Below, piece by piece: positions 14,139 to 51,900 of a stretch of 64,000 nt of DNA. The DNA lies in IMG/VR virus record IMGVR_UViG_3300020054_000866, positions 32,001 through 96,000 of that record; one strand, written 5' to 3'. Within the stretch, counting starts at the first letter, position 1. The number at the start of each line of letters is the position of its first letter. The notes beneath the pieces were generated by a model. It saw only the letters and a program-made list of their open reading frames with translations, was not told the origin of the DNA and searched no databases. The position numbers were made by a program, and so were the translations under genes. Source of the DNA: a virus.

Positions 14139-15140
14139 ATGTTTATCGTCATCGAAGGCACTGACGCCTCGGGAAAGTCTACTCTTGTAGACGCTGTTGT
14201 CTCTGAACTCACCGGGCAGCGGTCAACTGCCGGCGCGATTCAGTACCACAAGGGCGCGCCGAAAGAGTTCACTCGCAAAGGCGTACTTTCAGAGTACGTA
14301 GAAGACATTCAAGACTTCAACTGGTTCTCAGCGACAGCAGTCGCTGATCGATGGCATTGGGGTGAGGTAACGTATGCTCCGATCAAGCGTCGTCATACTA
14401 ACATTGACGGCTTTGGTCTACTTGGCGTTGCTGGCTGGCGATGGACCGAGATGTTTCTTCGCGCTCGCGGCATTACTCAGTTTTGGCTGTATCAGCCGCT
14501 TGAGATTATTCAGCAAAGAATTAGAGAACGCGGAGACGACTTTGTAGAAGAGCATGAGCTCGAGCATATTTTAAGTCTCTACTCTTATGCGTTCGACAAC
14601 ACCATGTCGTGCATTAAGTTGCAGCCGTCAAACGGCGGATTAGATCAAGTAGCAAACCTGGCGCGTGACGTCATCAGCTACGCTAAGACATTGCAATCTG
14701 AAGTTCAGCATCTAGAAAGATTTACTTGGTACATCGGACCTCCAAAGCCAAAGGCGCTTCTCGTCGGTGACGAAAGAAACGACGAGACTGACACGATGTT
14801 GCCTTTCAAGCCTTCCGGTGCAAATTCAGCAGACTATTTGTTGAACGCCCTACCGTGCGAAACCTGGCGCGACTACGGAATCATAAATTCTGCCGATGTC
14901 TATGGAGAAGACATCATACGACTATATGAAGCTCTTAATCGGCCAAAAGTTATAGCCCTTGGTCGCATGGCAGAAAAGCGTCTTCGTCAATGCTCACTCT
15001 ACGAAAGTCTATACACAGTTCTTCCGCATCCTCAACATGTTAGACGATTTCACTACTCTGATCAAACAGAGTATGGTCGCGCAATTGATAGCTTCGCAAA
15101 CGGAAACACACAGGAGTATGCGTCATGGGTTCTTCGCTGA
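14139..15140 (+). CDS. Deoxynucleotide monophosphate kinase fused to a uracil-DNA-glycosylase-like domain
   Basis: P-loop IVIEGTDASGKST, DRWH.GE..Y, R..ERGD (TMP kinase family); C-terminal LLVGDE / VIALGRMA / LPHPQ resemble UDG superfamily motifs. Confidence 0.7.
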   Translation: MFIVIEGTDASGKSTLVDAVVSELTGQRSTAGAIQYHKGAPKEFTRKGVLSEYVEDIQDFNWFSATAVADRWHWGEVTYAPIKRRHTNIDGFGLLGVAGWRWTEMFLRARGITQFWLYQPLEIIQQRIRERGDDFVEEHELEHILSLYSYAFDNTMSCIKLQPSNGGLDQVANLARDVISYAKTLQSEVQHLERFTWYIGPPKPKALLVGDERNDETDTMLPFKPSGANSADYLLNALPCETWRDYGIINSADVYGEDIIRLYEALNRPKVIALGRMAEKRLRQCSLYESLYTVLPHPQHVRRFHYSDQTEYGRAIDSFANGNTQEYASWVLR

Positions 15141-15997
15141 CAGCAATTCACATCGAAGACGGAGTAAACGGCTACGTTGATCTTGTTCATCACGTGCTTG
15201 AGCACGGCCGCGAGGTGTCCCCACGCGGTGTGAAGACAAGAGAAATTGAAGACGCAACTGTATTCATAGACAACGTGTACGACGCAATGCCGATGGGCGT
15301 TGGTCGAGGTGTCGTCCCGGGCATTGGCGCCGTTGAGGCGTGCCAACTCGTCGCCGGTAGGAGCACGCCACGGACAGTGATTGCTATAGGTCCGCAGTTT
15401 ACGAATTACGCTGAGAACAACGGAGAATTTCACGGAGCGTACGGTCTACGTACAAATGGCCAGTACGCTCACGTTGTAGACAAAATCAAGAGTGACCCAG
15501 ACACGCGGCAAGCAGTCGTGACGATCTGGAACCCTGAGTTTGACAACATGCCACAGAAGCGTGACTACCCATGCACAGTTCTTCATCAGTTTAGAGTTCG
15601 TGACGGCAAACTAAATATGAGTGTCTACATGCGCTCAAACGACGTGTGGCTTGGTGCAGCGTACGACTTTTTCCAGTTCACGCGGGTGCAGTTAGCGATC
15701 TGCTCGATACTTGGAATAGAGCCAGGCACGTATGCGCATCACGTTGGGTCGCTTCACATCTACGAGTCAAATATAGATGCGGTGACTAAGTTGCGTAAGA
15801 CGAGCGCCCCTGTCGACCCAATTCCGTATTTTGCTGGCAACTCGTGGGCAGACGTCGCACTATCTGCGCAGAACTGTCTTCTCGCCGTTGACCCCGAAGC
15901 TTTGCACGTACCGGAGCTAAACGATACAGAGCTCTGGTACGTTAACGCAATGCGCTCCGCTATCGAGAGCAACGAGGCCAAACTCGGAAATGCCTAG
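15125..15997 (+). CDS. Thymidylate synthase homologue, predicted dCMP hydroxymethylase-type
   Basis: PRG..T.E, GAYG, DTRQA, catalytic PC (C150), YMRSNDVWLGAAYD with Asp181 where ThyA has Asn, SLHIYE. Confidence 0.75.
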   Translation: MGSSLTAIHIEDGVNGYVDLVHHVLEHGREVSPRGVKTREIEDATVFIDNVYDAMPMGVGRGVVPGIGAVEACQLVAGRSTPRTVIAIGPQFTNYAENNGEFHGAYGLRTNGQYAHVVDKIKSDPDTRQAVVTIWNPEFDNMPQKRDYPCTVLHQFRVRDGKLNMSVYMRSNDVWLGAAYDFFQFTRVQLAICSILGIEPGTYAHHVGSLHIYESNIDAVTKLRKTSAPVDPIPYFAGNSWADVALSAQNCLLAVDPEALHVPELNDTELWYVNAMRSAIESNEAKLGNA

Positions 15998-16202
15998 TGA
16001 TGAAAACGAAGAAGCTTTTGAGTATGCGTCTCCGATGCATGCCGCAGCGATTGGCATGCACGAGATGTACATCACGCTGAAGTCTGCCGGGTTTTCAAGA
16101 ACTGAAGCTCTCGAGTTGATAGCAAGAATGCTTTCATACGGAGTCACAGAGACTCTAATAATTGAGAGCGAGCTTGGTGACGATGACGACGACGACGACT
16201 AA
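15990..16202 (+). CDS. Small acidic hypothetical protein
   Basis: HE.Y..L..AGFSR.EALEL motif; overlaps both neighbours. Confidence 0.65.
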   Translation: MPSDENEEAFEYASPMHAAAIGMHEMYITLKSAGFSRTEALELIARMLSYGVTETLIIESELGDDDDDDD

Positions 16203-16671
16203 CGCGCGGCCATCGTGGCAGTCGACATGGCTCACCGTTGCGACTGTTATTTCGCTGCGCTCACGGTGCTCAAGAGCGCAGATGGGCGCAGTTGTAGTGT
16301 CAAAAGACCAGCGTGTCTGCGCCACCGGCTATAACGGGCCGTCGGCGTCGTGGCCTGAAAGCGGCGACTGTATCGACTGGTGCCCAAGAGCGCGCGGCGA
16401 GTCACCACTAGACAACATCTATGACCAGTGCCCGTCAATTCACGCTGAAGCAAACGCGCTGCTGTACGTAGACAGATCAAGCGTTGAAGGCGGAACAATA
16501 TACATCACAAGTCCGCCGTGTATGCAGTGCGCAAAGCTAATTACAAATTCCGGGTTGTTGCACGTCGTATGTTATATTGGCGAGCACGACATGCACCGCA
16601 ATCCGTTGGATGTCGTCGAGTACATTAAAAAGTGTGGAATAAGCGTTACGCTTGTCGCGCACTCGGAGTGA
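16183..16671 (+). CDS. dCMP deaminase
   Basis: RPSW, RS.C.R...GA.VV, TGYNG, HAEANAL and PCxxC zinc motifs; ATG 16183 preferred over TTG 16162. Confidence 0.85.
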   Translation: MTTTTTNARPSWQSTWLTVATVISLRSRCSRAQMGAVVVSKDQRVCATGYNGPSASWPESGDCIDWCPRARGESPLDNIYDQCPSIHAEANALLYVDRSSVEGGTIYITSPPCMQCAKLITNSGLLHVVCYIGEHDMHRNPLDVVEYIKKCGISVTLVAHSE

Positions 16672-16677
16672 CGTATA

Positions 16678-18495
16678 GTGGCTGATCTTTCTCAAGTACA
16701 ACTTCACCTTGTCAACAGCGTAGAGTCTGCGAATGACTTTCTTTCGTGGCTTAGCGAACGACGGCCACACAACGCCATCGCGATCGACACGGAGACGGGC
16801 GAGATACCTGGAAACCCGAGGCAGCATGCGCTGTCACCGTGGCACGGACGTCTTCGGCTAGTTCAGGTCGGTGATGGCATGCAGGGCTGGTCAATACCGT
16901 GGGACGAATGGTCGGGAGTGTTCTACCAGGCGATGGAGCGCTTTGACGGTCCGATCGTCTGCCACAACATCGCGTTCGAGGCACGCTGGTTTGAGACTCA
17001 GTCACGCTGGAAAATGCCATGGCATCGCGCGCATGACACGATGATTATGGCTCACATTGTCGACCCGCTTGGTTCAGGCGCACTGAAGCGTCTTGCCGCG
17101 CTGCACGTCGACGCGCGTGCAGTTGCATTACAAGACACTCTTGATCAAGAGCTATCAGCCAACGGTTGGACCTGGGGAACTGTTCCCACAAACTTTGAGC
17201 CGTACTGGTCGTATGGCGCGCTCGACTGCGTTCTTACAATGCGTCTCTGGGAAATGTTCTACGAAAAGTGCGGACCTAACGGCGCGTACCACAAACCGTA
17301 TGAGCTCGAGATGGCGACTCGTAAGATCGTCACGAGAATGGAGATCAACGGCGCTCGAGTTGATCTTGACTACTCGCAGAGAAAGTACAACGAGCTTAGC
17401 TCATACACCGAGTCTGTAAAGAACTGGGCTAAGAATACGTACAACGGAACTTCTATAACGAGCAACATACAACTTGTTCGGCTGTTTGAGAGTCTTGGCG
17501 CTGAGATCACTGAGTTTACTCCGACCGGTCAGAAGTCTTGCACAAAGGATCAATTGAGGCTGCTAGCACAGAGCCCGATAGCGGAGGTCGCTAATCTCGC
17601 GGACACTGTTCTCAAGCAGCGTAAGGCCGACAAACTTGCTGGAACGTACTTTCTAAACTTTCTCACTGAGTCAATTGACGGCATTGTTCACCCGTCTGTG
17701 AAGACTCTTGGCGCTCGAACGAGCAGAATGTCGATCACAAATCCGGCGCTACAGACATTGCCGAAAGGCGATGACGTTGTTCGCCGAGCGTTCATCCCAA
17801 AAGACGATGACCACGTGATTATCACTTCTGACCTCGACCAGGTTGAGTTCAGAATGTTCGCGTCTCTATCTAAAGATCCAAATCTAATTACGCTGTTCAA
17901 CAGGGCGGACGCAACTGGCTCTGACCCGTTCACGGAGATTGGCAGAGAGATCTACAACGATCCGACGATGCAGAAGTCCGATAAGCGCCGCGCGCTGATT
18001 AAAGGCACGGTGTACGGAAGACTCTATGGCGCCGGTGTCGCGAAGCAAGCCGTAACTGCCGGCGTTCCTGAGCCACAGATGCGACAAGTTTCTGATGCAT
18101 TTGATCGCAGATTTCCGGGCATGTCGTACTTTCAAAAGCAGATCGAGGACGCCGGCATGCGAAGGTTGCAGAGCGAGGGCCAAGGCTACGTATATACGTG
18201 GACAGGAAGAAGACTGCCGTGCGACGAAGACAGAGTTTACACGCTTGTGAACTACCTCATTCAGGGTGGAGCGGCAGAGGTCTTCAAAGCAAATCTTGTC
18301 AAACTCGATCAAGCCGATTTGACTGAACTTCTCATCGTCCCGGTTCACGACGAAATAGTTCTACAGGCGCCACGAAAAGACGCAGACGAGATCAAGCAGA
18401 TAGTGAAGCAATGCATGACCACGTCTGACGGCTGGGATGTGCCACTGACCGCTGACGTAGACGGCCCGCTAGAGACGTGGGGCGACAAGTACTAG
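16678..18495 (+). CDS. polA: Family A DNA polymerase with 3'-5' exonuclease
   Basis: AIDTET, HNIAFE, HDTMIMAH, Y.ALD exo motifs; TSRMS..NP.LQ; motif A DLDQVEFR; motif B R...KGTVYGRLYG; N..IQG.AA; motif C VHDE. Confidence 0.95.
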   Translation: MADLSQVQLHLVNSVESANDFLSWLSERRPHNAIAIDTETGEIPGNPRQHALSPWHGRLRLVQVGDGMQGWSIPWDEWSGVFYQAMERFDGPIVCHNIAFEARWFETQSRWKMPWHRAHDTMIMAHIVDPLGSGALKRLAALHVDARAVALQDTLDQELSANGWTWGTVPTNFEPYWSYGALDCVLTMRLWEMFYEKCGPNGAYHKPYELEMATRKIVTRMEINGARVDLDYSQRKYNELSSYTESVKNWAKNTYNGTSITSNIQLVRLFESLGAEITEFTPTGQKSCTKDQLRLLAQSPIAEVANLADTVLKQRKADKLAGTYFLNFLTESIDGIVHPSVKTLGARTSRMSITNPALQTLPKGDDVVRRAFIPKDDDHVIITSDLDQVEFRMFASLSKDPNLITLFNRADATGSDPFTEIGREIYNDPTMQKSDKRRALIKGTVYGRLYGAGVAKQAVTAGVPEPQMRQVSDAFDRRFPGMSYFQKQIEDAGMRRLQSEGQGYVYTWTGRRLPCDEDRVYTLVNYLIQGGAAEVFKANLVKLDQADLTELLIVPVHDEIVLQAPRKDADEIKQIVKQCMTTSDGWDVPLTADVDGPLETWGDKY

Positions 18496-18812
18496 TGAAT
18501 AGGTACATGGAAAAAGCGATAGAGCTCGCTCACAGCAGCAAGTGCAGGCACAAGCACGGGTGCGTTGTAGTCAAAAACGGAAAGATCATTTCAAAAGCCA
18601 CAAACAAAAAAGTCGGAGACCCGTCCGTGGAGTTTCGTCTCGCGCTTCACGCGGAGTTTGCGGCTGTTGTAGCGGCAGGAACGCACGCCGCGGGTTCAAC
18701 AGTCTATGTAGCCAGAGTCCAAGCAGACGGCTCGACTGCGCTGTCTAAGCCTTGTAAGAAGTGTGAAAATATGATGAAAAGATCTGGAGTATCTAAGGTA
18801 GTGTGGACATGA
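18477..18812 (+). CDS. Second cytidine/deoxycytidylate deaminase-family protein
   Basis: H.HG.VVVK.GKII....N, HAE, SKPCKKC; the true start may be 18495 or 18507. Confidence 0.75.
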   Translation: MGRQVLVNRYMEKAIELAHSSKCRHKHGCVVVKNGKIISKATNKKVGDPSVEFRLALHAEFAAVVAAGTHAAGSTVYVARVQADGSTALSKPCKKCENMMKRSGVSKVVWT

Positions 18813-23569: not shown

Positions 23570-24772
23570 ATGCGTATTCTAATGACAGGTTTTACCGCTC
23601 TGCAAATAAACACAGAGCGTAGAACGATCAAGAAGATCGACGTGCCAGCGTCTATTGCCGAAGCACTCGAGTCTCGAGGGCACTCTGTCGACTGGAGAAG
23701 AGTGACTCCCGGGGAAGATCTCTCATCATACGACGTCGCCTGGGTAAACCTTGCGCCGCTAAACTCGCTGAACGGTCGCCAGGGCGCGATGGGTGCGCTG
23801 TACACGCTCTCCTCTGGTCTGCCCGCCGTTGGATTCTTCGATGACTGGCAATTCGCCGCAGTGTTTAACGCGTCACGAGCGTTGAAGCGACATCCAGAGC
23901 TTCTGTATAAGTATCTATTGTCTGGGCCGAGAGGCGATGAGCCGGCGACGTACTACTCGTATGATGACGCGAAGGCAGCACTTGATCGCGTCGCGGCGAA
24001 GAACCCTGAGGACGCAGCGAAATGCGGTCTTGGGCGGTACTTCTTCAATGACACTGACGAGAACATCAAGCTTTACGAAAACCAACTTGTCGCTGCTGGA
24101 GAGTCTATGCTCGCTGAGCGCTGGGCAGCAGGCCTTGTTCCGGCGTGCCCAATGTACGCGTTTGGTGATAGGCAGCTCGTAAGAAAGCGAATGCCTAAGG
24201 AAATGAATGGCATAGAAGCGCTCGACCCGAGCTCGACTATCTATAACATCCTAGCGAGCAGCGAGCCGCTGCCACCGGAGAGCAAGCAGAGATCGTGGGT
24301 TCTCGGCGCGCTGATGCCGCACGATACGTGGCTAGAAAAGAAGAAGCCCGAGTGGCCGGTAGAAATCATCGGAAGCAGAAAGCTTATTAAGAAGTTCGGC
24401 GGGCAGCGTCTTGACACGGAAGAAGACGTTCTAGCGTTCTACAACAATCACTGGGGGATTCTGTCTCCGCCGTATCCACACGCTGGCAGCGGTTGGTGGA
24501 GAAGCAGATTTATGTACGCCGCTCGAGTTAGGTCTATTCTTGTAGTAGATAAAGGCGAAGGCGACCCTATCGGTGACGCGTACAAAATCACAATCAAACA
24601 AGTCGAGAGTATGAGCGACGCTGAGCTCGAGGAAACTGCCAGAGCGCAGGCCGAGTCTCTTCGCCCGTACATGCCAAGCTACGATTCTTTTGTAGATCAC
24701 TGCGAAAGAATTGTTCTTAGGGCGATCAACGAAGACAAAGGTTTGAAGATACACCCAGACGGAAGTAGATGA
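23570..24772 (+). CDS. GT-B DNA glycosyltransferase, T4 beta-glucosyltransferase-like (copy 1)
   Basis: MRILMTG, DLSSYDVAWVN...N..NG, GFFDDWQ (aligns by eye with BGT YLFTDIR), VEIIGS, W.RSR...A....LVVD, Q...L C-terminal helix. Confidence 0.6.
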   Translation: MRILMTGFTALQINTERRTIKKIDVPASIAEALESRGHSVDWRRVTPGEDLSSYDVAWVNLAPLNSLNGRQGAMGALYTLSSGLPAVGFFDDWQFAAVFNASRALKRHPELLYKYLLSGPRGDEPATYYSYDDAKAALDRVAAKNPEDAAKCGLGRYFFNDTDENIKLYENQLVAAGESMLAERWAAGLVPACPMYAFGDRQLVRKRMPKEMNGIEALDPSSTIYNILASSEPLPPESKQRSWVLGALMPHDTWLEKKKPEWPVEIIGSRKLIKKFGGQRLDTEEDVLAFYNNHWGILSPPYPHAGSGWWRSRFMYAARVRSILVVDKGEGDPIGDAYKITIKQVESMSDAELEETARAQAESLRPYMPSYDSFVDHCERIVLRAINEDKGLKIHPDGSR

Positions 24773-25794
24773 TGAAAAACATCGCGGTGACTGGGATGAC
24801 AGCATCTCAGTACTCAAGATCGCGCAATTCATCGTCACTAAGCTTTGTCGCCTGTCTAAGCGACGCTGCTACCATGTATGGAGACGACGTCCGTGTTTCG
24901 TGGATAAAGCCGTCTGTCTCTCACGCGCAAAGCGACTTTGAAGAATACGATGCGATACTTGTCGGTCTTTCTCCTCTTCTAAGTCTTGCTTCTCACTGCG
25001 CGTACGGCGTTCTTAATGTCGTCGGCATGCTAAAGGGCGATCAACGACTGCACTTCTATATTGACGCTCCTGACCCGGCAAAGATACGTCAAAGTCTGAG
25101 CGCGATTGTAAAGACGCCAGAGTCGTTGAAAAAGCCGATCTATAAGAATAGAAACGAGTACTCTAAAGTTTCTGGCTCAAGTGAGATTGTAGACAGGCTC
25201 GCTGAGTCTGCTGAGTATCTGTATTCAGACAAAAACTACAGAGTGCTGTACCCAGCGTTCTCGTTCACAGACGACGTTCACGTATCAAGAAAGTTGTTCG
25301 GGGAGGACTCGCTGAGAATGGTTCCGTTCAACTTCGATGCTCTATACACGAGGCAGGAAGTTGACGCAGTAATTTCAGCGGAGAAAAGCAAGCTATGGCT
25401 TGTAGAAAATCACAAGACGCGCTGGTTTGAGAGAATGAAAAATCTTCTTTCATATGACTGGGAACCGGTCAAAATTAAAAGAATGCAGCCGGACACCGTG
25501 TCACTAGACAGAATTTGCAGATCCACGGGAACAATCATATGCCCGCAAAACGACTCAATTACGTGGTGGACGTACAGATTAGTGCAATCTTTAGCAGCTC
25601 TAGTCCCGGTTTGTACAGAATGGCGAGATACAATCTCTATCGGGCAGTCATGGTCTGCCATACCGCAGGCCGTCGAGTCGATGAGCATAGCGGAGAGATA
25701 CTCTCTAGCATTAGAACAACTGGAGCAATACTCTCTATCTATTAGAGACGCAGAGACAGAGACATCTAGACTATTTAAGGAGCTTTCACTCTAA
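24769..25794 (+). CDS. GT-B DNA glycosyltransferase-like (copy 2, paralogue)
   Basis: IAVTGMTA.Q, DFEEYDAILVGL.PL.SL, FYIDAP, WW.YR..Q; colinear with copy 1; ATGA overlap. Confidence 0.55.
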   Translation: MMKNIAVTGMTASQYSRSRNSSSLSFVACLSDAATMYGDDVRVSWIKPSVSHAQSDFEEYDAILVGLSPLLSLASHCAYGVLNVVGMLKGDQRLHFYIDAPDPAKIRQSLSAIVKTPESLKKPIYKNRNEYSKVSGSSEIVDRLAESAEYLYSDKNYRVLYPAFSFTDDVHVSRKLFGEDSLRMVPFNFDALYTRQEVDAVISAEKSKLWLVENHKTRWFERMKNLLSYDWEPVKIKRMQPDTVSLDRICRSTGTIICPQNDSITWWTYRLVQSLAALVPVCTEWRDTISIGQSWSAIPQAVESMSIAERYSLALEQLEQYSLSIRDAETETSRLFKELSL

Positions 25795-26267
25795 TGAACA
25801 TTCTATTTAATCAGTGGCTTGAAAAGACAAAGAAGCTTCAATCAGAAGTCTACGGTGTAGATTACTCCGTGTTTCATAGCGACAGCCCAGAAGATCTTCG
25901 AGCGCTTATCGAGTACATCCGCTGGAACATGCTTGCTATTGATGACGAGCTCTCGGAGGTTCGCAAGGCGATTTCTTGGAAGCCTTGGCAGCACGACGAG
26001 CCGTACGCTGATCGCCGCGAGATTCTCAAGGAATGCGTAGACGTTCTTCATTTTGTCGCTAACATTCTCTGCGCCGCTGGTGCACTTGATGAAGATCTTG
26101 ATTCTGAGTACATCGCAAAGATGCAAATCAACGCGAATAGACAGAAGGCCGGGTACAGAGTTCTTGATGACGGCATGAAGTGCAAACTGTGCGCGCGTGC
26201 CTTAGACGACTACGACACCTCCTCGTGTAAGGAAGACGGGTGCCCGCAGCGTCATGGAGTCGTCTGA
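25794..26267 (+). CDS. All-alpha dimeric dUTPase/dCTPase (MazG superfamily) with C-terminal Cys knuckle
   Basis: DEL.E....SWKPW...E.VD.LHF...Y..K...N..RQ; CxxC...C...C tail. Confidence 0.8.
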   Translation: MNILFNQWLEKTKKLQSEVYGVDYSVFHSDSPEDLRALIEYIRWNMLAIDDELSEVRKAISWKPWQHDEPYADRREILKECVDVLHFVANILCAAGALDEDLDSEYIAKMQINANRQKAGYRVLDDGMKCKLCARALDDYDTSSCKEDGCPQRHGVV

Positions 26268-26695: not shown

Positions 26696-27004
26696 ATGAC
26701 AAAAAAGATTGAAACCACGAGCGAGTCTCCAAGAGAGAAGATGCTTTCGGAGGCAGCAAAAATTATCTCTGGAGAGCGTGATCTTCAGTACGGCGGACCG
26801 GAAGACAATTTCCAAAGAATCGCGTCGCTATGGTCAGTCATTTTTGACAGAGACTTCAGCAAAGAAGATGTCGCAATGGCAATGATCGCAGTAAAACTCG
26901 CGCGATTTTCTTCCAACTACGGATTTCAACCAGACACCTGGACGGACATCGCGGGGTACGCGGCGTGCGGTTACGAGGTCGGGTTGATCGACTCAGGAGA
27001 GTGA
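26696..27004 (+). CDS. DUF6378-like phage protein
   Basis: L.EA..I..G.R...YG.PEDNF.RIA.LWS...DVA..M...K.AR...D.W.DIAGYAA. Confidence 0.75.
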   Translation: MTKKIETTSESPREKMLSEAAKIISGERDLQYGGPEDNFQRIASLWSVIFDRDFSKEDVAMAMIAVKLARFSSNYGFQPDTWTDIAGYAACGYEVGLIDSGE

Positions 27005-27005
27005 C

Positions 27006-28253
27006 ATGAGCACGAAAAAGTTTATCGACTGCAACGGCCTCGCTGGCTTCATGAGCCTTGGCTTTGTAAACTCCGGAATGGAGATGCTGGCAAGGACTGG
27101 GACGTTGAACTTCGGTAATCCAGTTGCAGAAGTGAATAGACATCATCTCGGCAACTCGTGGAACTCGTCATTCTCCGATGATCCGAGCGACTGGCCTGAT
27201 ATGGAAGCAGACATTGTTCTCGGCTGCCCGCCGTGCTCTGGATGGTCTCTATGGTCTGGCCCGGCAAACCGCGGGCCTGATGCTAAGGCTCACGAGCATA
27301 CTCGCGCGTTCATGAGATACGCAGCTCGCATCAAGCCGAAGATGATTGTCTTTGAATGTGTGCAGCAAGCGTACACTCAAGGACGACCAATGATGAATCA
27401 GTATCGTCAAATGGTAGAGGATCTCTCAGGCAAGCAGTACGATCTCTATCACGTCAAGCACAACAATCTCCAGGTCGGCGGATTCTCATATCGCATGCGG
27501 TACTTCTGGGTTGCTGTTGAAAAAGGCATGCCGTTTGGCGCTCACGCTGAGACGCCTAGCGAGATGCCTAGAATGATAGACGTAATTGGTGACCTCGAGC
27601 ACTGCGAGATCACGTGGGACCGACAGGCGTACTCCAACGACGGGTCGAAGTACGTTGCCGATCTCAGAAACCAAGACGGTACTGTTGACGGTCACATGAA
27701 CAAGACAAATCTCGAGTCGCAGAGAATTCAAGAAATCTTTGACATCATCGGCAACGATGGTTGGAAGCCGATGAAGCAGATGAACGAGGCTCTTAAGCTC
27801 GCCGTCGAGATGAACGGAGGGTACTTTCCACAGAGCTGGAGCAACAAAGAAGACAAGATTCGCGCCAATGACTTCTACATGGGGTTCTCACTCCCAGCAA
27901 GATGGGACGCTGAATCTTTCTGCCACGTGCTCACCGGTAGCGCGCTCGATCACGTCGTGCACCCAACGCAGCCGAGAAGAATCACTCACAGGGAGGCGGC
28001 AAGAATTCAAGGCCTTCCCGATGATTGGGAAATCGTCGCCGCGAAGGACTACACCCCGCAGAGCGCGACTTGGGGCAAGGCAGTGGCGGTGCAGGCGGCT
28101 AACTGGATCGGAGAGGCCTGCTCAGCGGCCTTAGACGGCCAGCCAAACGGTCCACAGGGTGAATTGATTGGTGATCGCGAATACCTTCTCGACACTGACA
28201 AGGGCTTTAGTAGAAACTTCGTCAAGAAGAACTTCTACCAGCGAGAAGACTAA
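27006..28253 (+). CDS. Atypical C5-cytosine DNA methyltransferase homologue
   Basis: Motif IV G.PPC.G.S (C77), motif VI FECV, motif VIII R.R.F.VA, motif IX HP...R.IT.REAARIQG.PDDW, motif X WGKAV; motif I altered to DCNGLAG. Confidence 0.85.
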   Translation: MSTKKFIDCNGLAGFMSLGFVNSGMEMLARTGTLNFGNPVAEVNRHHLGNSWNSSFSDDPSDWPDMEADIVLGCPPCSGWSLWSGPANRGPDAKAHEHTRAFMRYAARIKPKMIVFECVQQAYTQGRPMMNQYRQMVEDLSGKQYDLYHVKHNNLQVGGFSYRMRYFWVAVEKGMPFGAHAETPSEMPRMIDVIGDLEHCEITWDRQAYSNDGSKYVADLRNQDGTVDGHMNKTNLESQRIQEIFDIIGNDGWKPMKQMNEALKLAVEMNGGYFPQSWSNKEDKIRANDFYMGFSLPARWDAESFCHVLTGSALDHVVHPTQPRRITHREAARIQGLPDDWEIVAAKDYTPQSATWGKAVAVQAANWIGEACSAALDGQPNGPQGELIGDREYLLDTDKGFSRNFVKKNFYQRED

Positions 28254-28324: not shown

Positions 28325-28837
28325 ATGCAATCATTTCTAGTCTCGACTGACTCGTTTGAGACAACAGCAAAAGTACTAGACAACAAGCGCCTGCATAAGC
28401 AGACTCTTGAGGCATGGCAGTGCTTGCTAACAATCTCTGGCCTAGACCCAGAGGGCAACGACCGAAACCCTAAGGGCTGGGTGAATCACCCAGTTGTAAA
28501 AATGTGGCGCGGCTACGAGACAGTGTTTGTCTCATACATCTCGGCTACGTACTTCGAGTGGCGATCGCGCGGGTACAAATCAACTCTTCTTGAGAAAACG
28601 TACAGAACGTACGATCTAGCAGTCTCACTAGGCCGTGTCTCTTCCGAGTATCGACTCCCACCATGGATGCAAGACTCTACGTACTTTAGCAGCCTATGTT
28701 CTACTCATCGGACCGCACTCCTGTGCAAGAACTACGAGTGGTACCATCAGTTCGGCTGGCCAGAGGACTCGGGGACTGCACCAGAGACGTACGAGTACTT
28801 GTGGCCTCATCAAGACGGCTACGTCATCGCCGGCTAA
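28325..28837 (+). CDS. Pyrimidine-dimer DNA glycosylase (DenV / MSMEG_6728-like)
   Basis: MQSFL....F...A..LD.KRL.KQ..E..Q...GW.NHP.V.MW.GY...PPW...HR..L..K..E.Y. Confidence 0.8.
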   Translation: MQSFLVSTDSFETTAKVLDNKRLHKQTLEAWQCLLTISGLDPEGNDRNPKGWVNHPVVKMWRGYETVFVSYISATYFEWRSRGYKSTLLEKTYRTYDLAVSLGRVSSEYRLPPWMQDSTYFSSLCSTHRTALLCKNYEWYHQFGWPEDSGTAPETYEYLWPHQDGYVIAG

Positions 28838-43541: not shown

Positions 43542-43825
43542 TCTGAGGTCTTACCTTTCACTACACCGTCGGGAATTAGGGCAAATCTGCAATATCCCAT
43601 GGGTTCGACTTCCGCTGAGATGATTTTGCACTCAGTGCCTCCCGCGTAGAGAATACAGTTTTGGCAGGTGACGCCAATTTCAGCATTCTCATTTTCAGCC
43701 GCAGTTTCGTATCCAGCCCAGACACCGGTATCATCTTCGTTGAACTTGCCGTACTTCTGAGTTATCGCAATTAGCGCGTCAGCAAGCTCTTGCTCTTCTG
43801 CAATGATTTTGCCAACGGCAATCAC
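43538..43825 (-). CDS. HiPIP-like Cys4 protein
   Basis: C-terminal CQNC..Y.....C......V.P.GYC pattern. Confidence 0.6.
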   Translation of the reverse strand: MIAVGKIIAEEQELADALIAITQKYGKFNEDDTGVWAGYETAAENENAEIGVTCQNCILYAGGTECKIISAEVEPMGYCRFALIPDGVVKGKTSE

Positions 43826-46800
43826 TGCATCGGCGGCGCTTTTGGGTCAGCATCACCACTCTCAACGGCAGCACGAATCGTAAGGCTCTGCACTCTTGCC
43901 TTGATGCCATCAACAACGTCGTCGTCTACGAGACCTGCGTTCTTCCACTTCTCTGGGATAAGGTCAGCTCGCTTGAGAGAACGCGCGCGCTTCATAATGT
44001 GACGGCGCACCGCGGCTCGCTTGCTCGGCTTTGAGCGTCCGTACGCTTGAATCGCGTCCTTGAGCTCCTCGATATTTCTGATCGGGTACGAACCGTCCGG
44101 AAGAGCCTTACCCTCTTTAGCAAGCTTTTCGCGCGTCTTGGTCGAGATGTATCCGAGCTCATCGTACGCGAACGTGCTACGCACCCTGTTAGAAAGCTCT
44201 TCGGCCTTAGACTTAGTATCTTCACTAACTACCGAGAGTTTTTCAAGAGCGTCAAGTCTCTTCTTCATGTCCTGAAGAGGGTCGCTCTTCATTCTCGCCA
44301 GTGTAGACGCACCGGCAGCAACAAGAGCGTATACCTGGCCACTCGCTACTCGAGCTCTAGCGATTGGGAAGCCGGGGACGTTGACCTGACACACGGCGAC
44401 GAGCTCTAGCGAACCACCAATAGGCCGCCAGTCACCGGACGGCGCAGAAGCGCGAAGAGCTCTGATCTGCTCAGGCGTGGCTGTAGTGCGAAGAGAGCCA
44501 GCTACCCAGATGCCATATGAATCTTCCCCAGCGTGCACGTCGGCGATGGCAGAGCCAGTGTCGTCGTAGTGACGTGCTGCGTCTGAAGCGCTAGCCTCGA
44601 GAGGCGCGTGACCGCCGGCGAGAGTTAACTGCCCGACTGGGTAGTCGTTGCCGTCATCTGCTCGGAGAACTCCTGTATGGAAGTACGAGTACTTGCTCTT
44701 GCTTCTCGGTGGCTTTGTCCCGTACGCCATTCCGATGTGATCAACGTGCCATGCAGCGATATGGCCGTACACTTGACCCTCGTCTGTCACTGTAAGCGGC
44801 GTCGCCTTAGTGAGCTTGGGGTTCTGGAACCATTCGGCGGGCGGAACAATAGGTATCGAGCCAGCAACCATGCCACAGGCGACTAGCGCCTGTGCGTCAA
44901 GATCGTTGAGGTCCTCGACGTAGATTCCGTCAGGGGTGACTTCCATTTCTTCCTCCTGAGACTGAAGATCTTCGCTATCTTCGTCTTCTATGTAGATCCT
45001 GCATTCCTGGAACGCTGGCTTAGGTACTATTGTAACTGCCATTACTCGGGCCTTATCGACCTCGATTTTCCCTCCGCCGATCTTCTTGACCTTTTTCTTG
45101 ACCTCTTCAAGAAGCTCTTCCGCTTTTTCATCAGAGTCGTCGCCAAGAATTTCGTCGTCGTCATCATCACTTTCGCTGGCCTCGAACATGTCCAGGTCCG
45201 CCGATACTCCTCGGATGAATCCGTTTTTCACAAGACGCTCTGCCTCGGCGCCGTACGCGCCCGTGTCGAAGACGCCATACGCGTTTCCGATCCCGTCATC
45301 AGTTCGCTCCATGTGATCAATTCGACCAACAACAACAGATCCGTTGTGCCCATCGCCTGTCTTGATCTGCCACAGAAGCGGCAGCGGGAGCTCACGGAGA
45401 GTGATCGCGCCTTTCTTAAAGACTCTTCCGTCTCCGGTTTCTGCACCTTCTGGGATTACGAGAGGGATCTTGAACTTACACCCGCCGTAAGAATTCTTAT
45501 AGCCTCCGGCGACAAGAACTCTGCTCTTCGCGTCAGCGACTTTTGCTCGTAGAATGCTTGTCTCGATGATCTGCTCTTCAGAAAGAACATCGTACAGATC
45601 TTCAGCGCTTCCGCGAACGCTCTTCTTCTTCTTTCCAACGTTGTACTTACTGCCAGGCCAGACTCCAGTCATCTCCTTGTGACGAAGTGAGCAGTAGCCT
45701 TTCGCGCGAGGGCCCATGTACTTACGTAGATGGCGGTAGCAACGTGTCCAATCGCCTGGAGTGTTCCAGCGAATCTTAAGAGCGCCGCGGCCAATTGTCC
45801 AATATCTTCTGAGCTTCTCAGCTTTGCCGCGATTTCTATCAAGGCCGCCGGCAGCCATCAGGGTGTTCAACGGCTCAACACCGTACATCTCAAGGAGACG
45901 TCTCTCATTTTCATCAAACACGTAGACGTAGTTCCCAGACGCCGTCATCGTTTGATCGACCTGGGCCAAAACGTCATCGTAGACCTCGCCTGTAAGAGCG
46001 ACTACAGGCGGAGGTGTTGCTGATGTTAGGTCAGCAAGAATCTGCTCGTCCTTAACCCATTCACCGTCTTCGCGAATAAACGTTGTCGGTGATGTCGATG
46101 TAGACGACGCTGGAACTACGCTTACAAGATCCATGACCGCTTGCGGATCATCAGGTGAGACTATAGCGACGTACATTGGCTCGACGTCGCTTGTCTCTGG
46201 TGTAAGCTCTTCACCAGGCTTAGACGGTTCAACGGTGTTTTCGTTGATGTCGTACGCGGTAGACGTTATTGGACTGTACCAAATCTTACTTTCTTTTGGC
46301 TTCTTTTTAAAGTAGTCCTGAAGAAGCGGATGATGCTCTGCTCTTTTAGTGAACAGCTCTTCTCCGCTCTCTCTTTCCATGTTGCGAATGTAGTCGGACT
46401 TTTGATACTCCGGCGCGCGATCGCCAGCAGGTTGAATTTTCTGCCCACGGACACGCTTATCTTGTAGATCGGCCCCGCCGCTGCGCTGCTCCATTACCCA
46501 CGCTGGATAATTATTGACAATTTTTTGTAGGTCCTCAGAGCGTAGTGCTGGTAGACCGCCAGGAATTGCTGCCTTTGGTCTGTCAATCGGCGCGCGTGGC
46601 TCGCCAAGAATTCCTCGAGTATCGAGCGGCATCCCAGGTGTATCGGTGAGAGGGCCAGTCTGCATCGCCGGCTGTGTACCCTCCGCCTGGACCCTGTTCG
46701 CACGAACTGTCTGACTTGAGCCATCGTCCATCTTCAGAGTGACGCTCTGAGTGTCTGGGTCAATCCCGCTAATCGAGCCGGACTTCGACGCATCGCCGTC

Positions 46801-47949
46801 AACTACAACTCGCCCACCCATCTTAGCGAAGCGGCCGCTTTTGTCGCGAACTTGCTTTCGTGCCTTTGCTGATCGCTCCTCGGGAGTATATTCGCCGTCA
46901 GCGTCACTCTCTTCTCCGGCGGCGGTGAGCACTGAGTCGATCTCGCCCCAGTCAATTTGATCAGCGGCCGCAGCAGCAAGCTCGGCTTCTTCCTCATTGA
47001 GTGAGTAGACAGACACGCTTGTGAACGGGCGCTCCTGAAGGTGCGCGGAAATAATCAACGCGGTTTGCGGATCAATAAGAATGTGGCGCTTTTCTACGAC
47101 ATCATACGGATCGTCAAGAGACCGATCGTACGTGTAGATATCGCTGTCGACGTGACCGAGATCGTCCCAGTCACCATCGTCCCAAACGTAGATAACCTCA
47201 TCGAGACCGAGCATGTAGAGACGATCAATTCCGCTGCCGTCAAGACGAACACGAGCGATGAACTCTGGGCAATCGCCGTCACTAATGTTTTGTGCAAGAT
47301 CAAAGACATCAATGGCAGGCTTAGCGTATCTACTAATTGACATTGACTCTTGGTCGCTGTACTCTTCGTACGGGTCTACGACCGTCTCGCCGCTGGCAGT
47401 CTTCGCCTTCTTATTTTCACGCTCAACGATGTTTTTGGCCCAGCGCCACGCCGAATCTCCACCCCATAGCGCCCAGGCAATTCTTCCATTCGACGGGTAG
47501 CCATCTTCTCCAGGGTCGTAGCCTTTTGCCTTCTTATCAATCTCGTGACGAGGAAAGTACTTAGCGATATGGCGAACCTTTTTAATTCCAATTTGCCCGC
47601 CGGCGGCTAAAGTTCTTGCCGTGCTGATGCCGACCGGCGTCCCGCCTCTTTTGTACTCTTTTCTCCACTCAAGAGCCTTCTTTGCTTCAGCCTGTACACC
47701 CTTTGGGATAGTGTACATTCTGGCAGAAGCAGTCAACGCAACGACACGAAGGTCGGAGAGAGCGGCAGATGCAAGCTCGTGCATTACGTCGGAGGGCTCA
47801 CTATCGCACGGCCCCCAAGGCATTAGATACGACATCTCCGAAAGCATTCCGGAGTCTTCTACCATATTAGTTTCGGAGTTTACAACTACGCCCCTAGAGC
47901 CGTCTGTAAAGAGAACCAGATTCTCTGACTCGCCATGAACGGTGATCAT
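43822..47949 (-). CDS. Multidomain capsid maturation (prohead) protease
   Basis: PEG.ETGDGR.F, LPL.WQ....GH....VG.I, GVS.D, T.V..PAF; second YGH.A.W...HYD...GED..GIW.AG...SGDWR...VN.PGF domain; several accessory domains. Confidence 0.8.
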   Translation of the reverse strand: MITVHGESENLVLFTDGSRGVVVNSETNMVEDSGMLSEMSYLMPWGPCDSEPSDVMHELASAALSDLRVVALTASARMYTIPKGVQAEAKKALEWRKEYKRGGTPVGISTARTLAAGGQIGIKKVRHIAKYFPRHEIDKKAKGYDPGEDGYPSNGRIAWALWGGDSAWRWAKNIVERENKKAKTASGETVVDPYEEYSDQESMSISRYAKPAIDVFDLAQNISDGDCPEFIARVRLDGSGIDRLYMLGLDEVIYVWDDGDWDDLGHVDSDIYTYDRSLDDPYDVVEKRHILIDPQTALIISAHLQERPFTSVSVYSLNEEEAELAAAAADQIDWGEIDSVLTAAGEESDADGEYTPEERSAKARKQVRDKSGRFAKMGGRVVVDGDASKSGSISGIDPDTQSVTLKMDDGSSQTVRANRVQAEGTQPAMQTGPLTDTPGMPLDTRGILGEPRAPIDRPKAAIPGGLPALRSEDLQKIVNNYPAWVMEQRSGGADLQDKRVRGQKIQPAGDRAPEYQKSDYIRNMERESGEELFTKRAEHHPLLQDYFKKKPKESKIWYSPITSTAYDINENTVEPSKPGEELTPETSDVEPMYVAIVSPDDPQAVMDLVSVVPASSTSTSPTTFIREDGEWVKDEQILADLTSATPPPVVALTGEVYDDVLAQVDQTMTASGNYVYVFDENERRLLEMYGVEPLNTLMAAGGLDRNRGKAEKLRRYWTIGRGALKIRWNTPGDWTRCYRHLRKYMGPRAKGYCSLRHKEMTGVWPGSKYNVGKKKKSVRGSAEDLYDVLSEEQIIETSILRAKVADAKSRVLVAGGYKNSYGGCKFKIPLVIPEGAETGDGRVFKKGAITLRELPLPLLWQIKTGDGHNGSVVVGRIDHMERTDDGIGNAYGVFDTGAYGAEAERLVKNGFIRGVSADLDMFEASESDDDDDEILGDDSDEKAEELLEEVKKKVKKIGGGKIEVDKARVMAVTIVPKPAFQECRIYIEDEDSEDLQSQEEEMEVTPDGIYVEDLNDLDAQALVACGMVAGSIPIVPPAEWFQNPKLTKATPLTVTDEGQVYGHIAAWHVDHIGMAYGTKPPRSKSKYSYFHTGVLRADDGNDYPVGQLTLAGGHAPLEASASDAARHYDDTGSAIADVHAGEDSYGIWVAGSLRTTATPEQIRALRASAPSGDWRPIGGSLELVAVCQVNVPGFPIARARVASGQVYALVAAGASTLARMKSDPLQDMKKRLDALEKLSVVSEDTKSKAEELSNRVRSTFAYDELGYISTKTREKLAKEGKALPDGSYPIRNIEELKDAIQAYGRSKPSKRAAVRRHIMKRARSLKRADLIPEKWKNAGLVDDDVVDGIKARVQSLTIRAAVESGDADPKAPPMQ

Positions 47950-48976: not shown

Positions 48977-51900
48977 TTAATAAATCCGCTCGAACAATAC
49001 AAAGAAGTCTTCAACAGGCACTCCGTTTATTTCAGATATACCACGAGCTTCTAGACTCACGAGTATATTTTCACGCACTTGCGTTCCTACGTGCACTTTC
49101 TTAATAGCAGAAGGCGATATCGCGCCTTTAACAAGAATCTCGTACGCGTCGAATGAAGTCATTTCATTGTACGGATCTCTCTCCGACCGAGCGCCAAATC
49201 TGTCAGTCTCGTTTGCCCATATGTCTAACCGACTGAGAATGACGTCTGGATCAAGTTCAAACGCGTAGTTTGTAGTCGAGTACGTCGATGTCGGGTCCAT
49301 TTGAATAGATCTCGGGGTAGCTCTAGAAATGTACGCGTATTCAGCAGAGCCAGTTCCGTAGTCGGCGTACGACGACTGGCCTTCGATGCCTATGCCGGAA
49401 TCAAATCTCTTTCTAGAACTGACAATGCCAGGTACTCCCGCGCCTATATCATCTGGCTCACTAAGCCCGAGCACTCGAAGAACTACCTTTGCGGCGGCCT
49501 CGCTCTCAGTTATCCAAGAGTCATCAAAAGTCTCTGAATAGGACGCTGGAAGATTGCCAGCGTGCCAGAACGACTCGCCGCCTCCAAGCGCGATTCTTTT
49601 CCTTAGAGCGTCGACAAGCTCTTGAGAGTGTCGAATCTCGACCTTGCCGGTTGCAGGATCTGTTGCTACAGTGTAGTCAAAAAGACTCGGATACAACTGC
49701 CGCAGCTCTTGAACTATTCTATCTCTATTTGCCCCCGAGGTCGTGAACGCCGGGTTGTTGTAGTTGCCTTCTGAACTAAGAACGCTAATCGCTCTATTTT
49801 CTACAAGGAGCTCGATGTCCTGCTCTGTTGCCGGTCTTGGGTCGCGAACGCCGGCTACTTTCATTGCTAGTTCAACGACTTCACTTGAGGGATTGTCGTC
49901 GTCAAAAAGAATACGAACTCTGTTTACGTCTGCAATAAGATTGTCAGATCCGCCCTGGACAGCTCCACCTTCTTCATTGTACAGCCCCGTGTATGGACTA
50001 CTGTATGAGCTGCCAGAAGAGGTTGTTGCAATTCTTATTGAAAAACCATCTCCTTGATACACGAGCTCTTGCATAGATCTATCAAGGTAGAGTCTTCCGT
50101 TACCGTCTTCTTTTCTAATGTCATTTGACTCGCCTACATACTTTACGCCGTTGTCGTCGACTTGAATAAAAGTGTTGTATAGCGCGTAACCGATCACGGT
50201 GTTTCTCATACGATCAGTGCCAGTTGAAGTGCTAACTGACCACCCGGAGTCATCGTCTCTAGCCCGCTGTTTAGCGACAGCAGTAAGTCTTTCAGCAGCC
50301 CAGGCGGTAAGTTTGAATGACATTTGTGTCTTAACTTTGTCGCTAAAGTTGCGCTTGACTCGAGATATCTCCACCTCACCGTCTTCTATGTCTGAACCAT
50401 CAAACAATGTAGAAGTTGCTATCGACTTCTTGTCAGCAGAGTTGGCTATACTAATAGCTTCAGTCATAGACGGTACGTCGTCAAACGCCGAGCTCGTTAA
50501 CGGAAGAACGTCTACGTCTTCTCTAAGCTCTCTCCCTGGCCCGAGGAATCGTGACGCGGCCACCCGCGCCGCTAGTGCCGGGTCTGACATAAACAGTTTT
50601 GAGACCTTTCTAGCCGCTTCTGGGTTGTCAGCCATTATTCGTTTAATGGATTCGATGCTCTCGCGAAGAGTAGTGGCGACAGCAACCCACGAATCTTTCC
50701 CGCCGACTGCGTTCTTTCCAATTGATGACTGATTCTTCTTACTAATTGTCCAGTCGTCTTTTACCTCGATGTCTTTAAATCTGCCGTTAATAAGAGCGTT
50801 CTTAAACTCTCCTAGTACAGCACGAACTTCAGGATCTGTCGCTTCTCCTATTGCAGCATGAAGATATATTGAAGCCCCAACTACGTCGCCTTGACTAATC
50901 ATCGCGAGGGTCTGAGTTTCAATAGCCCCGTTGTACGGCTTAGCGTCTCCATCAGGAGTATCAGGTCTTCTATTATAGTTGATATCGACCGCCGCCACTC
51001 GCGCAAAATTAAGAATATCGCGGATGCGAGCGAGCTCGCCTAAGTACCCTCTCTCGCTCTTGTCAATTTCTGAAGAGTACGCGTGCCTAACAGCAGCCAC
51101 TACAGCCATAGTGTTGCCCATAACTGTCTCAGGAATGCCTTGCTCATCAAAAATCTGTCTATATTCTTTTGCAAGGACCTCAGAAATTTCATCTACCTCA
51201 AAAGGATCTTCGTTGCTGTAGTCCGTGAAATTCTTAGACATCTTTGCAGTCTCGGCGCGCGCGCGGAGTGCTTCTGAGTGTCTTTCCAAAAGCTCTGGCA
51301 TGAATTCGTCGAGAGACGGGTGTAGCTCGCCGGTTCCGACCATGCGTAGGAGCTCATCAGCGGTGAAGAATTTAATTTCTGACGTCTCGTTATCGCTGAT
51401 TTTCGCGCTCTTCGCGTCTTCAGCAGAAACTGTGAAGCCAACTGTAGAGTACCGCCAGTCCTGCGTGACATCGTTCTCATGTATGAAGTCGGGGACTGTC
51501 AACGCGTTGATAGAAATTCCAATTTCCTCTGCGGTCTCTTCAATCGCGGTTGTTCTAGGGTCTTCTGCATTTCTTCTGTTTCTATGCGCTCCACCAGGCA
51601 GACCCCACTTCCCCCCTCCTCCTGGGATCCACGTTGCTCTTTTGCCAAGAACGTACTTAACTTCTCCATCATCGTCAACAAACGAGATTAGCGCGCCGCC
51701 GGCGCCGTATCTTCCCCAAAATCTTTGCTTCTCCGCCGAGAAGAAATAACCTTCGCCAGCGCTATCTGCTCCACCGTCACCCATCGGTATAAACATTGGT
51801 AGTAGAACATCGGGATCGTCAACGTTGACGTCGTATCTATCTATAAACGACTCCGCCACCCAGACATCGTCGTCTATCTGACTAAATTCTACTCCCTTGT

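Follow-up and report, generated by a model that had tools for sequence, protein, structure and literature searches.

A 64,000-nucleotide stretch of viral DNA, hereafter the window, which corresponds to positions 32001-96000 of the virus record IMGVR_UViG_3300020054_000866 (109.8 kb, estimated to be 82% complete), encodes an unusual member of the DNA cytosine-C5 methyltransferase family. The protein has retained the catalytic side of the fold, whereas the motifs on the side of the cofactor S-adenosylmethionine (SAM) have been rebuilt and the conserved asparagine of motif X is replaced by a lysine, Lys358. Judged from its pocket and its gene context, this Lys-type enzyme probably catalyses a non-methyl reaction on DNA. 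Our best guess, which is tentative and may well prove wrong, is a SAM-independent chemistry in which a cysteine adds covalently to C6 of the base and the side chain of 5-hydroxymethylcytosine (5hmC) in the phage DNA is altered. The enzyme might then be the first natural protein of the C5-methyltransferase fold to abandon SAM, rewriting 5hmC in DNA via an exocyclic methylene as part of an undescribed hypermodification of actinobacterial phages, a proposal that we advance with equal reserve. What we observe here comprises the fold, the states of its motifs and how they are conserved, the genes around the enzyme, the fusions to other domains and the lack of CmoA, the synthase of carboxy-SAM (Cx-SAM), and what we infer is that 5hmC DNA is the substrate, which reaction takes place and how Lys358 takes part in it. 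The gene and its motifs are located in the window as follows.

27006..28253, plus strand: Lys-type C5-methyltransferase-fold enzyme of 415 amino acids; open reading frame (ORF) open, Pfam PF00145 at an E-value of 8e-23, AlphaFold2 model with a predicted local distance difference test (pLDDT) score of 97
27027..27050, plus strand: rebuilt motif I, DCNGLAGF, residues 8-15, in which Asn10 takes the place of the Phe and Leu12 that of the first Gly (profile alignment to M.HaeIII)
27099..27101, plus strand: Gly32 at the acidic, ribose-binding position of motif II, within ARTGTLNFG (residues 29-37); pairs with the Glu of ANEY in M.HaeIII
27228..27239, plus strand: motif IV PPCS, residues 75-78 (string GCPPCS), with Cys77 as the catalytic residue and Ser78 replacing the Gln of PCQ
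27354..27362, plus strand: motif VI ECV (Glu117-Cys118-Val119; string FECV) instead of ENV, aligned to ENV of M.HaeIII
27492..27500, plus strand: motif VIII, Arg163-x-Arg165 (string YRMRYF)
28077..28079, plus strand: AAG codon of Lys358, which takes the place of the motif X Asn (WGKAV) in pairwise and profile alignments

The enzyme scores 81.8 bits against PF00145, above the cutoff of 22, and 48.8 bits against the NCBIfam dcm model (TIGR00675), below the cutoff of 100.65. PHROG DNA methyltransferase families match it as well, and the annotation of the family in databases is methyltransferase. Motif IX is intact (RITHREAARIQGLPDDW). On the SAM side, FxGxG of motif I, the acid of motif II, the Asn of ENV and the Asn of GN have all departed from the canonical state. 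Lys358 pairs with the Asn of GNAV in ZMET2 (pairwise alignment, GKAVAV against GNAVAV) and in M.HaeIII (profile alignment), and with Arg350 of SpCmoX, a phage carboxymethyltransferase that is discussed below. A first-pass annotation, made from the letters of the window, had already described an intact catalytic side next to a remodelled cofactor side. The motif strings that it quoted all occur as written in the translation, with Cys77, Glu117, Arg163/Arg165 and motif IX intact; the alignments with M.HaeIII and ZMET2 place Lys358 at the motif X Asn, as it had supposed; and the remodelling is borne out by the motif alignments and by conservation among 122 sequences, where the Lys recurs in 117.

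These 122 near-full-length representatives, aligned at 27-60% identity, come from a search of 1.84 billion cluster representatives that gave 138 matches below an E-value of 1e-30. At position 358 the five representatives without Lys have Arg (three) or Ser or Gln (two), and a residue conserved to this extent is neither a private mutation nor a sequencing error. The catalytic residues are Cys at position 77 (119 of 122), Glu at position 117 (121), Arg at position 163 (119) and Arg at position 165 (all 122), while Ser occupies position 78 in 106 and position 118 in 114, with Cys at the latter in five. At the motif I Phe, position 10, Gln (61), His (16), Asn (10) and Glu (8) are found; the first Gly of motif I, position 12, is replaced by Phe (68) or Leu (42), and the acidic position of motif II, position 32, is Glu in 79, Ser in 16 and Gly in 12. 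As far as these alignments go, the catalytic side and Lys358 are under tighter constraint than the positions that canonically hold adenosine, which drift. The family consensus reads D-x-Q-G-F-A-G-G in motif I (canonically FxGxG), NPPCSGFS in motif IV (PCQ), ESV in motif VI (ENV) and GK in motif X (GN). The sub-clade of the enzyme has diverged further, at Asn10, Leu12, Phe15, Gly32, Cys74 and Cys118, and has a conserved RG-x-DS-x-IN-x-CMW segment. In addition, a C-terminal extension, residues 375-415, with a conserved G-x-P-G ... G-D-R-E pattern, is specific to the family.

By sequence, the family is a large clade whose members derive from viral and metagenomic sequence only. Among 185,579 prokaryote species genomes (one per species) no close relatives were found; the matches were to distant methyltransferases, the best of them at 26% identity. 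The isolated phages that carry it are Actinomycetia phage DSL-LC01, the Gordonia GMA2/Phendrix/Sixama group and Micrococcus phage Kurnik only, and a phage collection held 15 records with the enzyme, the same whichever representative served as the query. Most members of the family are stand-alone proteins.

The AlphaFold2 model of the enzyme, built on 76 relatives, has a mean pLDDT of 97 and a predicted template modelling score of 0.94. In this model the enzyme has the full C5-methyltransferase fold, with a catalytic domain and a target recognition domain. VIA-align yields Z-scores of 30.4 with DNMT1, 29.4 with the CP-933R prophage enzyme 3G7U, 29.3 with M.HaeIII, approximately 26 with M.HhaI and 23.8 with CmoX (8YF3), such that ordinary methyltransferases reach Z 26-30 and the model is structurally not nearer to CmoX than to these. 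The recognition domain is closest to those of DNMT1, MET1 and ZMET2 (profile E-value 4e-16; Z of about 30 for DNMT1).

The substrate is suggested by a predicted pathway for 5hmC, three genes of which lie upstream of the enzyme in the window.

15125..15997, plus strand: thymidylate-synthase homologue with the signature of 5-hydroxymethyl-deoxycytidine monophosphate (5hm-dCMP) synthases; PF00303 at 95 bits, alignment to thymidylate synthase and MilA
14139..15140, plus strand: P-loop protein resembling deoxynucleoside monophosphate kinases, overlapping the thymidylate-synthase homologue; weak matches to deoxythymidine monophosphate kinase, PHROG thymidylate kinase at an E-value of 5.6e-14
16162..16671, plus strand: dCMP deaminase; PF00383 at an E-value of 2.6e-17, PHROG dCMP deaminase at an E-value of 1.7e-40

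In the numbering of Escherichia coli ThyA, the thymidylate-synthase homologue carries L143D (in DYPC) and N177D (in AAYD) and keeps D169 (in RSND), and the same combination of L143D, D169 and N177D occurs in the divergent thymidylate-synthase homologue of all 11 genomes examined. N177D selects dCMP, an acidic residue at position 143 accompanies hydroxymethylation, and D169N marks the 5-hydroxy-dCMP synthases (PMC13326640). These homologues are predicted 5hm-dCMP synthases. A 5-hydroxycytosine route (PMC13326640) was rejected, as the diagnostic D169N is present in none of the homologues examined. The proposal of the first-pass annotation that the phage makes 5hmC, leaving C5 already blocked, is supported by this signature. 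With C5 predicted to be occupied, plain methylation is unlikely. A search of the genome for TET/JBP enzymes (PF12851) gave no match, although its control likewise matched nothing anywhere. A second ORF of the deaminase family (18477-18812, plus strand, 111 codons) overlaps the DNA polymerase gene region at its end and may be a truncated or specialised copy.

The genes upstream of the enzyme include candidates for the attachment of sugars.

23570..24772, plus strand: GT-B glycosyltransferase 1, candidate DNA glycosyltransferase of 400 amino acids; AlphaFold2 model with a pLDDT of 87, Foldseek
24769..25794, plus strand: second tandem ORF, putative paralogous glycosyltransferase of 341 amino acids, assigned from its position and N-terminal pattern only
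25794..26267, plus strand: nucleoside triphosphate (NTP) pyrophosphatase resembling MazG and dimeric dUTPases; PF08761 at an E-value of 2.6e-11, PHROG dUTPase

The order in the window is SNF2 helicase, PD-(D/E)XK nuclease, AAA_24, DUF669, the two tandem ORFs (400 and 341 amino acids) and the MazG/dUTPase_2-like NTPase, followed by small ORFs that include a DUF6378 protein, the enzyme, a DenV-like glycosylase and WhiB. Glycosyltransferase 1 has no Pfam match, but in Foldseek its model matches GT-B enzymes best, with T4 beta-glucosyltransferase (1qkj) at rank 2, and an Atlas feature search retrieved T4-Gluco-transf clusters at 0.95-0.96, to be read as a lead only. The second tandem ORF has neither a Pfam nor a PHROG match, and its homologues in DSL-LC01 and GMA2 occupy the corresponding place. 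Together, the ORFs at 23570-25794 on the plus strand form a candidate pair of DNA glycosyltransferases. Loci were compared between four phage lineages at 33-40% identity (n=23: DSL-LC01, GMA2, Kurnik, nineteen IMG/VR loci from phages of roughly 60-90 kb and one 188 kb metagenomic contig). The gene order of the window recurs in them as a module of SNF2 helicase, PD-(D/E)XK nuclease, AAA_24, DUF669, glycosyltransferase or sugar genes, MazG-like gene and enzyme. In 22 of the 23 the enzyme is preceded by the MazG-like gene, either adjoining it or with a few small ORFs in between. The stretch from DUF669 to MazG varies in its genes, which encode glycosyltransferases or sugar-nucleotide enzymes. In the relatives of roughly 60-90 kb these include RGP/STELLO-like glycosyltransferases together with an NAD-dependent sugar epimerase (L008, L015, L017 and L018, at ~5.5-9.5 kb in each locus), and in DSL-LC01 a UDP-galactopyranose mutase. 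Since the sugar genes differ in this manner, the attached sugars may be furanoses or pentoses and may vary by lineage.

Some metagenomic representatives of the family are fused to additional domains.

P0147, P0179, P0185, P0199 and P0271: C-terminal FkbM-family methyltransferase domain
P0175, P0181 and P0209: Methyltransf_23/UbiG-like domain
P0257: HMUDK_hel domain of 5-hydroxymethyl-deoxyuridine DNA kinases, at an E-value of 5e-40
P0142: C-terminal winged-helix domain
P0226: Hint/LAGLIDADG intein near the N terminus, ahead of the C-terminal portion of the domain that was matched

All of the fused representatives retain the Cys, the Glu, both Arg and the Lys. Fusions of the O-methyltransferase type, FkbM or UbiG-like, account for eight of them, and by score these domains are FkbM/UbiG-like and not CmoA. 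Separate copies of the fused FkbM, UbiG-like and HMUDK domains were not found by phmmer in the 109.8 kb genome, and a search for related loci with the kinase-fused P0257 and with P0185 retrieved nothing. An FkbM-fused member is located in the same gene module on the 188 kb metagenomic contig; on this contig, a gene for a 2'-5' RNA ligase/LigT-like phosphoesterase (L065:8364-9080, plus strand) stands between the deaminase and the fused enzyme. As the fused kinases, the O-methyltransferase-like domains and the neighbouring glycosyltransferases all act on hydroxyls, the enzyme appears to be tied to the hydroxymethyl side chain and not to a bare C5.

In the mechanism that we propose, the enzyme would act after replication on the phage's own 5hmC DNA, and no methyl group would be taken from SAM. 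The DNMT1-like recognition domain would grip the duplex and the base would be flipped out, whereupon Cys77 would add to C6 while Glu117, Arg163 and Arg165 would hold the cytosine ring. The small Ser78 (for Gln), Cys118 (for Asn) and the cationic Lys358 could together form a roomy, positive pocket for the 5-CH2-O(H/R) group. Acting as a general acid or as an anion binder, Lys358 would allow the oxygen leaving group to depart and, by analogy with thymidylate synthase, an intermediate with an exocyclic methylene would result. This intermediate would be captured by a nucleophile, or the group would be transformed otherwise, after which Cys77 would be eliminated. Reactions of this type have reportedly been obtained in vitro by Liutkeviciute, Klimasauskas and co-workers (2009-2014), in whose hands C5-methyltransferases without SAM coupled nucleophiles to 5hmC or released formaldehyde from it. 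In the same work, smaller residues at Gln82 and Asn304 of M.HhaI are said to have enlarged the pocket and improved the activity.

A different outcome, carboxymethyl transfer, had been favoured by the first-pass annotation by analogy with M.MpeI N374K, and that this engineered enzyme is a carboxymethyltransferase is confirmed by the literature (PMC13288465). CmoX of Synechococcus phage S-B43, published in December 2025, is a natural DNA cytosine C5-carboxymethyltransferase (PDB 8YF3) in which Arg350 replaces the motif X Asn and touches the carboxylate of Cx-SAM, while Phe25, Glu47, Phe48 and Asp69 contact the adenosine (PMC12783734). Its Cx-SAM is supplied by a phage CmoA, and the ligase CmoY, an amide ligase that forms adenosine monophosphate, adds glycine; CmoX homologues were gathered by the authors with SPPC and Arg350 as a requirement (PMC12783734). 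With CmoX published, natural non-methyl C5 chemistry is no longer a new idea, but the Lys-type family differs from the enzyme described.

The sequences of SpCmoX and SpCmoA were taken from the S-B43 record. The Lys-type enzyme and SpCmoX share a pairwise identity of 21%, and in this sequence alignment all four adenosine contacts of CmoX are replaced in the enzyme (Asn10, Gly32, Thr33 and Asn53 where aligned) or cannot be aligned. The residue before PPC is Cys in the enzyme (CPPC), Asn in the family consensus (NPPC) and Ser in CmoX (SPPC), whereas the Ser of PPCS is common to all. Having Lys358 in the position of Arg350 counts against membership of the CmoX group but not against an analogy with it, as a Lys could take over the contact with the carboxylate in the way of M.MpeI N374K. 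CmoA (TIGR00740) was found in none of ten phage genomes with the enzyme, namely this genome (82% complete), the complete DSL-LC01, GMA2 and Kurnik and six IMG/VR genomes, five of which are at least 97% complete; the same search detects SpCmoA at an E-value of 2.5e-34. In tblastn, 64 of the 80 close CmoX loci retrieved had a match to SpCmoA no more than 6 kb from CmoX; all 80 are at least 86% identical to SpCmoX and have Arg at position 350. No Lys-type locus had such a match, and neither had this genome. Furthermore, none of the 301 Actinomycetota genomes sampled passed the CmoA cutoff. Three of these, at 132-152 bits, have scores comparable with that of the phage CmoA, 115.6 bits; five of the 301 are unpublished, including one of the three. 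Corynebacterium glutamicum, in the control panel, gave no CmoA match, even a loose one. No Pfam family of CmoY-like amide ligases was present in the 30 plus-strand ORFs of the window that were scanned.

The first-pass annotation had seen no CmoA-like synthase in the window, and this now extends to the rest of the 109.8 kb record (82% complete) and to all ten phage genomes. It had further suggested a search of the host for cmoA; of the 301 Actinomycetota genomes sampled, none passed the cutoff and three reached the score of phage CmoA. Of its claim of a natural carboxymethyl-type enzyme, the non-methyl part appears probable, whereas the carboxymethyl part finds little support in view of the ten genomes without CmoA and the lost adenosine contacts. 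Its second idea, chemistry on 5hmC itself, suits the gene context better than carboxymethyl transfer. The lack of CmoA and the loss of the four contacts mean that the use of Cx-SAM is possible, but is not the leading reading, and support for carboxymethyl transfer is weak.

Two additional neighbours of the enzyme flank it directly.

26696..27004, plus strand: small DUF6378 protein, encoded after the MazG-like gene and before the enzyme; PF19905 at an E-value of 1.4e-26
28325..28837, plus strand: pyrimidine-dimer DNA glycosylase resembling DenV (T4 endonuclease V), directly downstream of the enzyme; PF03013 at an E-value of 6.7e-15

Among the loci compared, the DUF6378 protein is conserved only in DSL-LC01; the label 'phosphofructokinase' that PHROG gives to DUF6378 families is an apparent inherited misannotation. 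The position of the DenV-like gene is kept in DSL-LC01 and not in the other lineages. DSL-LC01 also has a gene for a class I methyltransferase of 170 amino acids just upstream of the homologue of the enzyme, which is unlike the fused domains and unlike any protein of the present genome, and which no NCBIfam model matched. Elsewhere in the window, a single ORF of 4,985 codons spans 48977-63934 on the minus strand, with an ORF of 1,375 codons (43822-47949) upstream of it, both on the strand of the structural genes; in DSL-LC01 the counterpart bears the implausible annotation 'ALK tyrosine kinase receptor'. No transfer RNA (tRNA) genes were found within 1-64000 of the window, and GMA2 has 17 tRNA genes in a block a few kb upstream of its homologous module.

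Several points weigh against SAM-independent chemistry on 5hmC. Gly14, Gly19, Gly24 and Gly37 in the glycine-rich N-terminal loops and Asn44 are nearly invariant, and the Glu of motif II is retained in about 65% of the family, so that a ligand may still occupy the Rossmann site. That Leu12 and Phe15 fill the SAM site is something we infer from the sequence alone. That 5hmC fully takes the place of C in these phages is a prediction from their genes, as is the 5hmC reaction of the enzyme and its relatives, about which we are correspondingly tentative. In addition, the compared phage lineages share ancestry, so the counts of co-occurrence are not independent. Finally, Lys358 matches the engineered change for Cx-SAM and PPCS is common with CmoX, which argues for a SAM analogue with an anionic group over the absence of a cofactor. 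The enzyme might on these grounds be a Lys-type counterpart of CmoX that transfers a carboxymethyl-type group from Cx-SAM, or from another SAM analogue with an anionic group, to C5 of the cytosines that remain unmodified, with Lys358 pairing with the carboxylate. Alignment of Lys358 with Arg350 of SpCmoX and with the M.MpeI Asn that was changed to Lys, PPCS in both families and retention of the motif II Glu by 79 of the 122 representatives are consistent with such a donor, and the fused domains of the class I methyltransferase fold could in principle be cofactor synthases like CmoA; the small class I methyltransferase gene in DSL-LC01 fits as well. We nevertheless consider it unlikely. CmoA accompanies most CmoX loci (64 of 80) but no Lys-type locus, is missing from the ten enzyme-bearing genomes and is rare in the Actinomycetota sample (none of 301 above the cutoff, three with scores like that of SpCmoA); by score the fused domains are FkbM/UbiG-like, and the ORFs scanned hold no CmoY-like ligase. 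The four adenosine contacts are missing, the model is no nearer in structure to CmoX than to ordinary methyltransferases, and C5 is predicted to be occupied already.

Fusion to several different hydroxyl-modifying domains is also what would be expected of a shared DNA-handling module. The enzyme could then be a base-flipping subunit without a product of its own, which presents 5hmC to partners (the glycosyltransferases, the kinase and the O-methyltransferases), or it could direct its Cys-C6 chemistry at unmodified cytosine in host DNA. The recognition domain resembling those of DNMT1, MET1 and ZMET2 and, in this clade, the DenV-like DNA glycosylase directly downstream suit such roles, and T4 illustrates that phages with hydroxymethylcytosine tell the cytosine-containing DNA of the host from their own. 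However, the strict conservation of Cys77, Glu117, Arg163, Arg165 and Lys358 argues for turnover and not only for binding, most members are stand-alone, and nothing in this analysis indicates a role directed at the host, which makes this a quite unlikely account. The enzyme could also be what its annotation in databases says, an ordinary SAM-dependent methyltransferase with odd motifs that forms 5-methylcytosine on residual cytosines or on host DNA: it passes the gathering score of PF00145 and has a complete fold with all catalytic motifs. This we regard as very unlikely, given that motifs I, II, VI and X are off the SAM consensus with departures that are conserved at 27-60% identity, that the score is below the NCBIfam dcm cutoff, and that the gene co-occurs with a predicted C5-blocking pathway in all 11 genomes tested. 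These four readings together leave some of the probability unassigned.

C5-methyltransferases belong to the DNA enzymes that are understood best, and to our knowledge all natural ones were thought until 2025 to transfer a methyl group. CmoX revealed that one pocket residue can switch the donor (PMC12783734). As the Lys-type family is found in phages in which C5 is predicted to be occupied, neither methylation nor chemistry of the CmoX type would explain the enzyme. If its reaction is elucidated, actinophages that are abundant in fresh water and soil could turn out to contain a new DNA base, and the chemistry on 5hmC without SAM, known to date from in vitro work only, could gain a precedent in nature. 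The enzyme could also become a new tool with which to label or sequence 5hmC. Both hosts and phages are available in culture (Gordonia GMA2, Phendrix and Sixama; Micrococcus Kurnik), which makes the reaction directly testable.

Compared to known systems, the enzyme shares with canonical C5-methyltransferases (M.HaeIII 1DCT, M.HhaI, 3G7U and DNMT1/MET1/ZMET2) the fold over ~290-360 residues and motifs IV (PC), VI (Glu), VIII (RxR) and IX. However, these enzymes have FxGxG, the motif II acid, the Asn of ENV, the Gln of PCQ and the motif X Asn, all of which are replaced here, and are without the extension at residues 375-415. The SAM-free reactions on 5hmC in vitro have in common with the proposed mechanism the activation by Cys at C6, and the shrinkage at Gln82 and Asn304 goes in the same direction as the natural substitutions, but they are promiscuous and sluggish laboratory reactions of true methyltransferases; we know of no natural enzyme that is dedicated to SAM-free 5hmC chemistry. 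The gene set of the T4 pathway for 5hmC is matched by the thymidylate-synthase homologue, the P-loop kinase, the all-alpha NTP pyrophosphatase, the deaminase and the GT-B glycosyltransferase found here, whose assignments come from sequence or models. Hypermodification clusters in which a phage cytosine methyltransferase and a TET-like dioxygenase make 5hmC on the DNA, together with a glycosyltransferase, have been described in two studies, neither of which mentions actinophages or MazG (PMC8256090; bioRxiv 2023.12.21.572611). There, too, a gene of the C5-methyltransferase family is grouped with DNA glycosyltransferases in phages, but in the present case 5hmC is predicted to be made as a nucleotide by the thymidylate-synthase homologue and the methyltransferase-like gene has a non-canonical pocket.

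CmoX, itself the first enzyme of a hypermodification route, is likewise encoded by phages and has the C5-methyltransferase fold, PPCS and a cationic residue for the motif X Asn, Arg350 corresponding to Lys358. It differs in its canonical motif I (FAGGGG), its ENV and its retained adenosine contacts, in SPPC and Arg, and in its location beside CmoA and often an amide ligase, whereas the Lys-type enzyme has DCNGLAGF, ECV and no motif II acid, and is accompanied by an NTPase and glycosyltransferases in a predicted 5hmC phage. The engineered carboxymethyltransferases M.MpeI N374K and M.CviPI Y205K/R (PMC13288465) resemble the Lys-type enzyme in having Lys at the structurally equivalent position of the pocket, by the transferable group of the cofactor. 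These are point mutants of otherwise canonical SAM binders and act on unmodified CpG or GpC, whereas in the Lys-type family motifs I, II, IV and VI are altered as well, and the family is found where C5 is predicted to be substituted.

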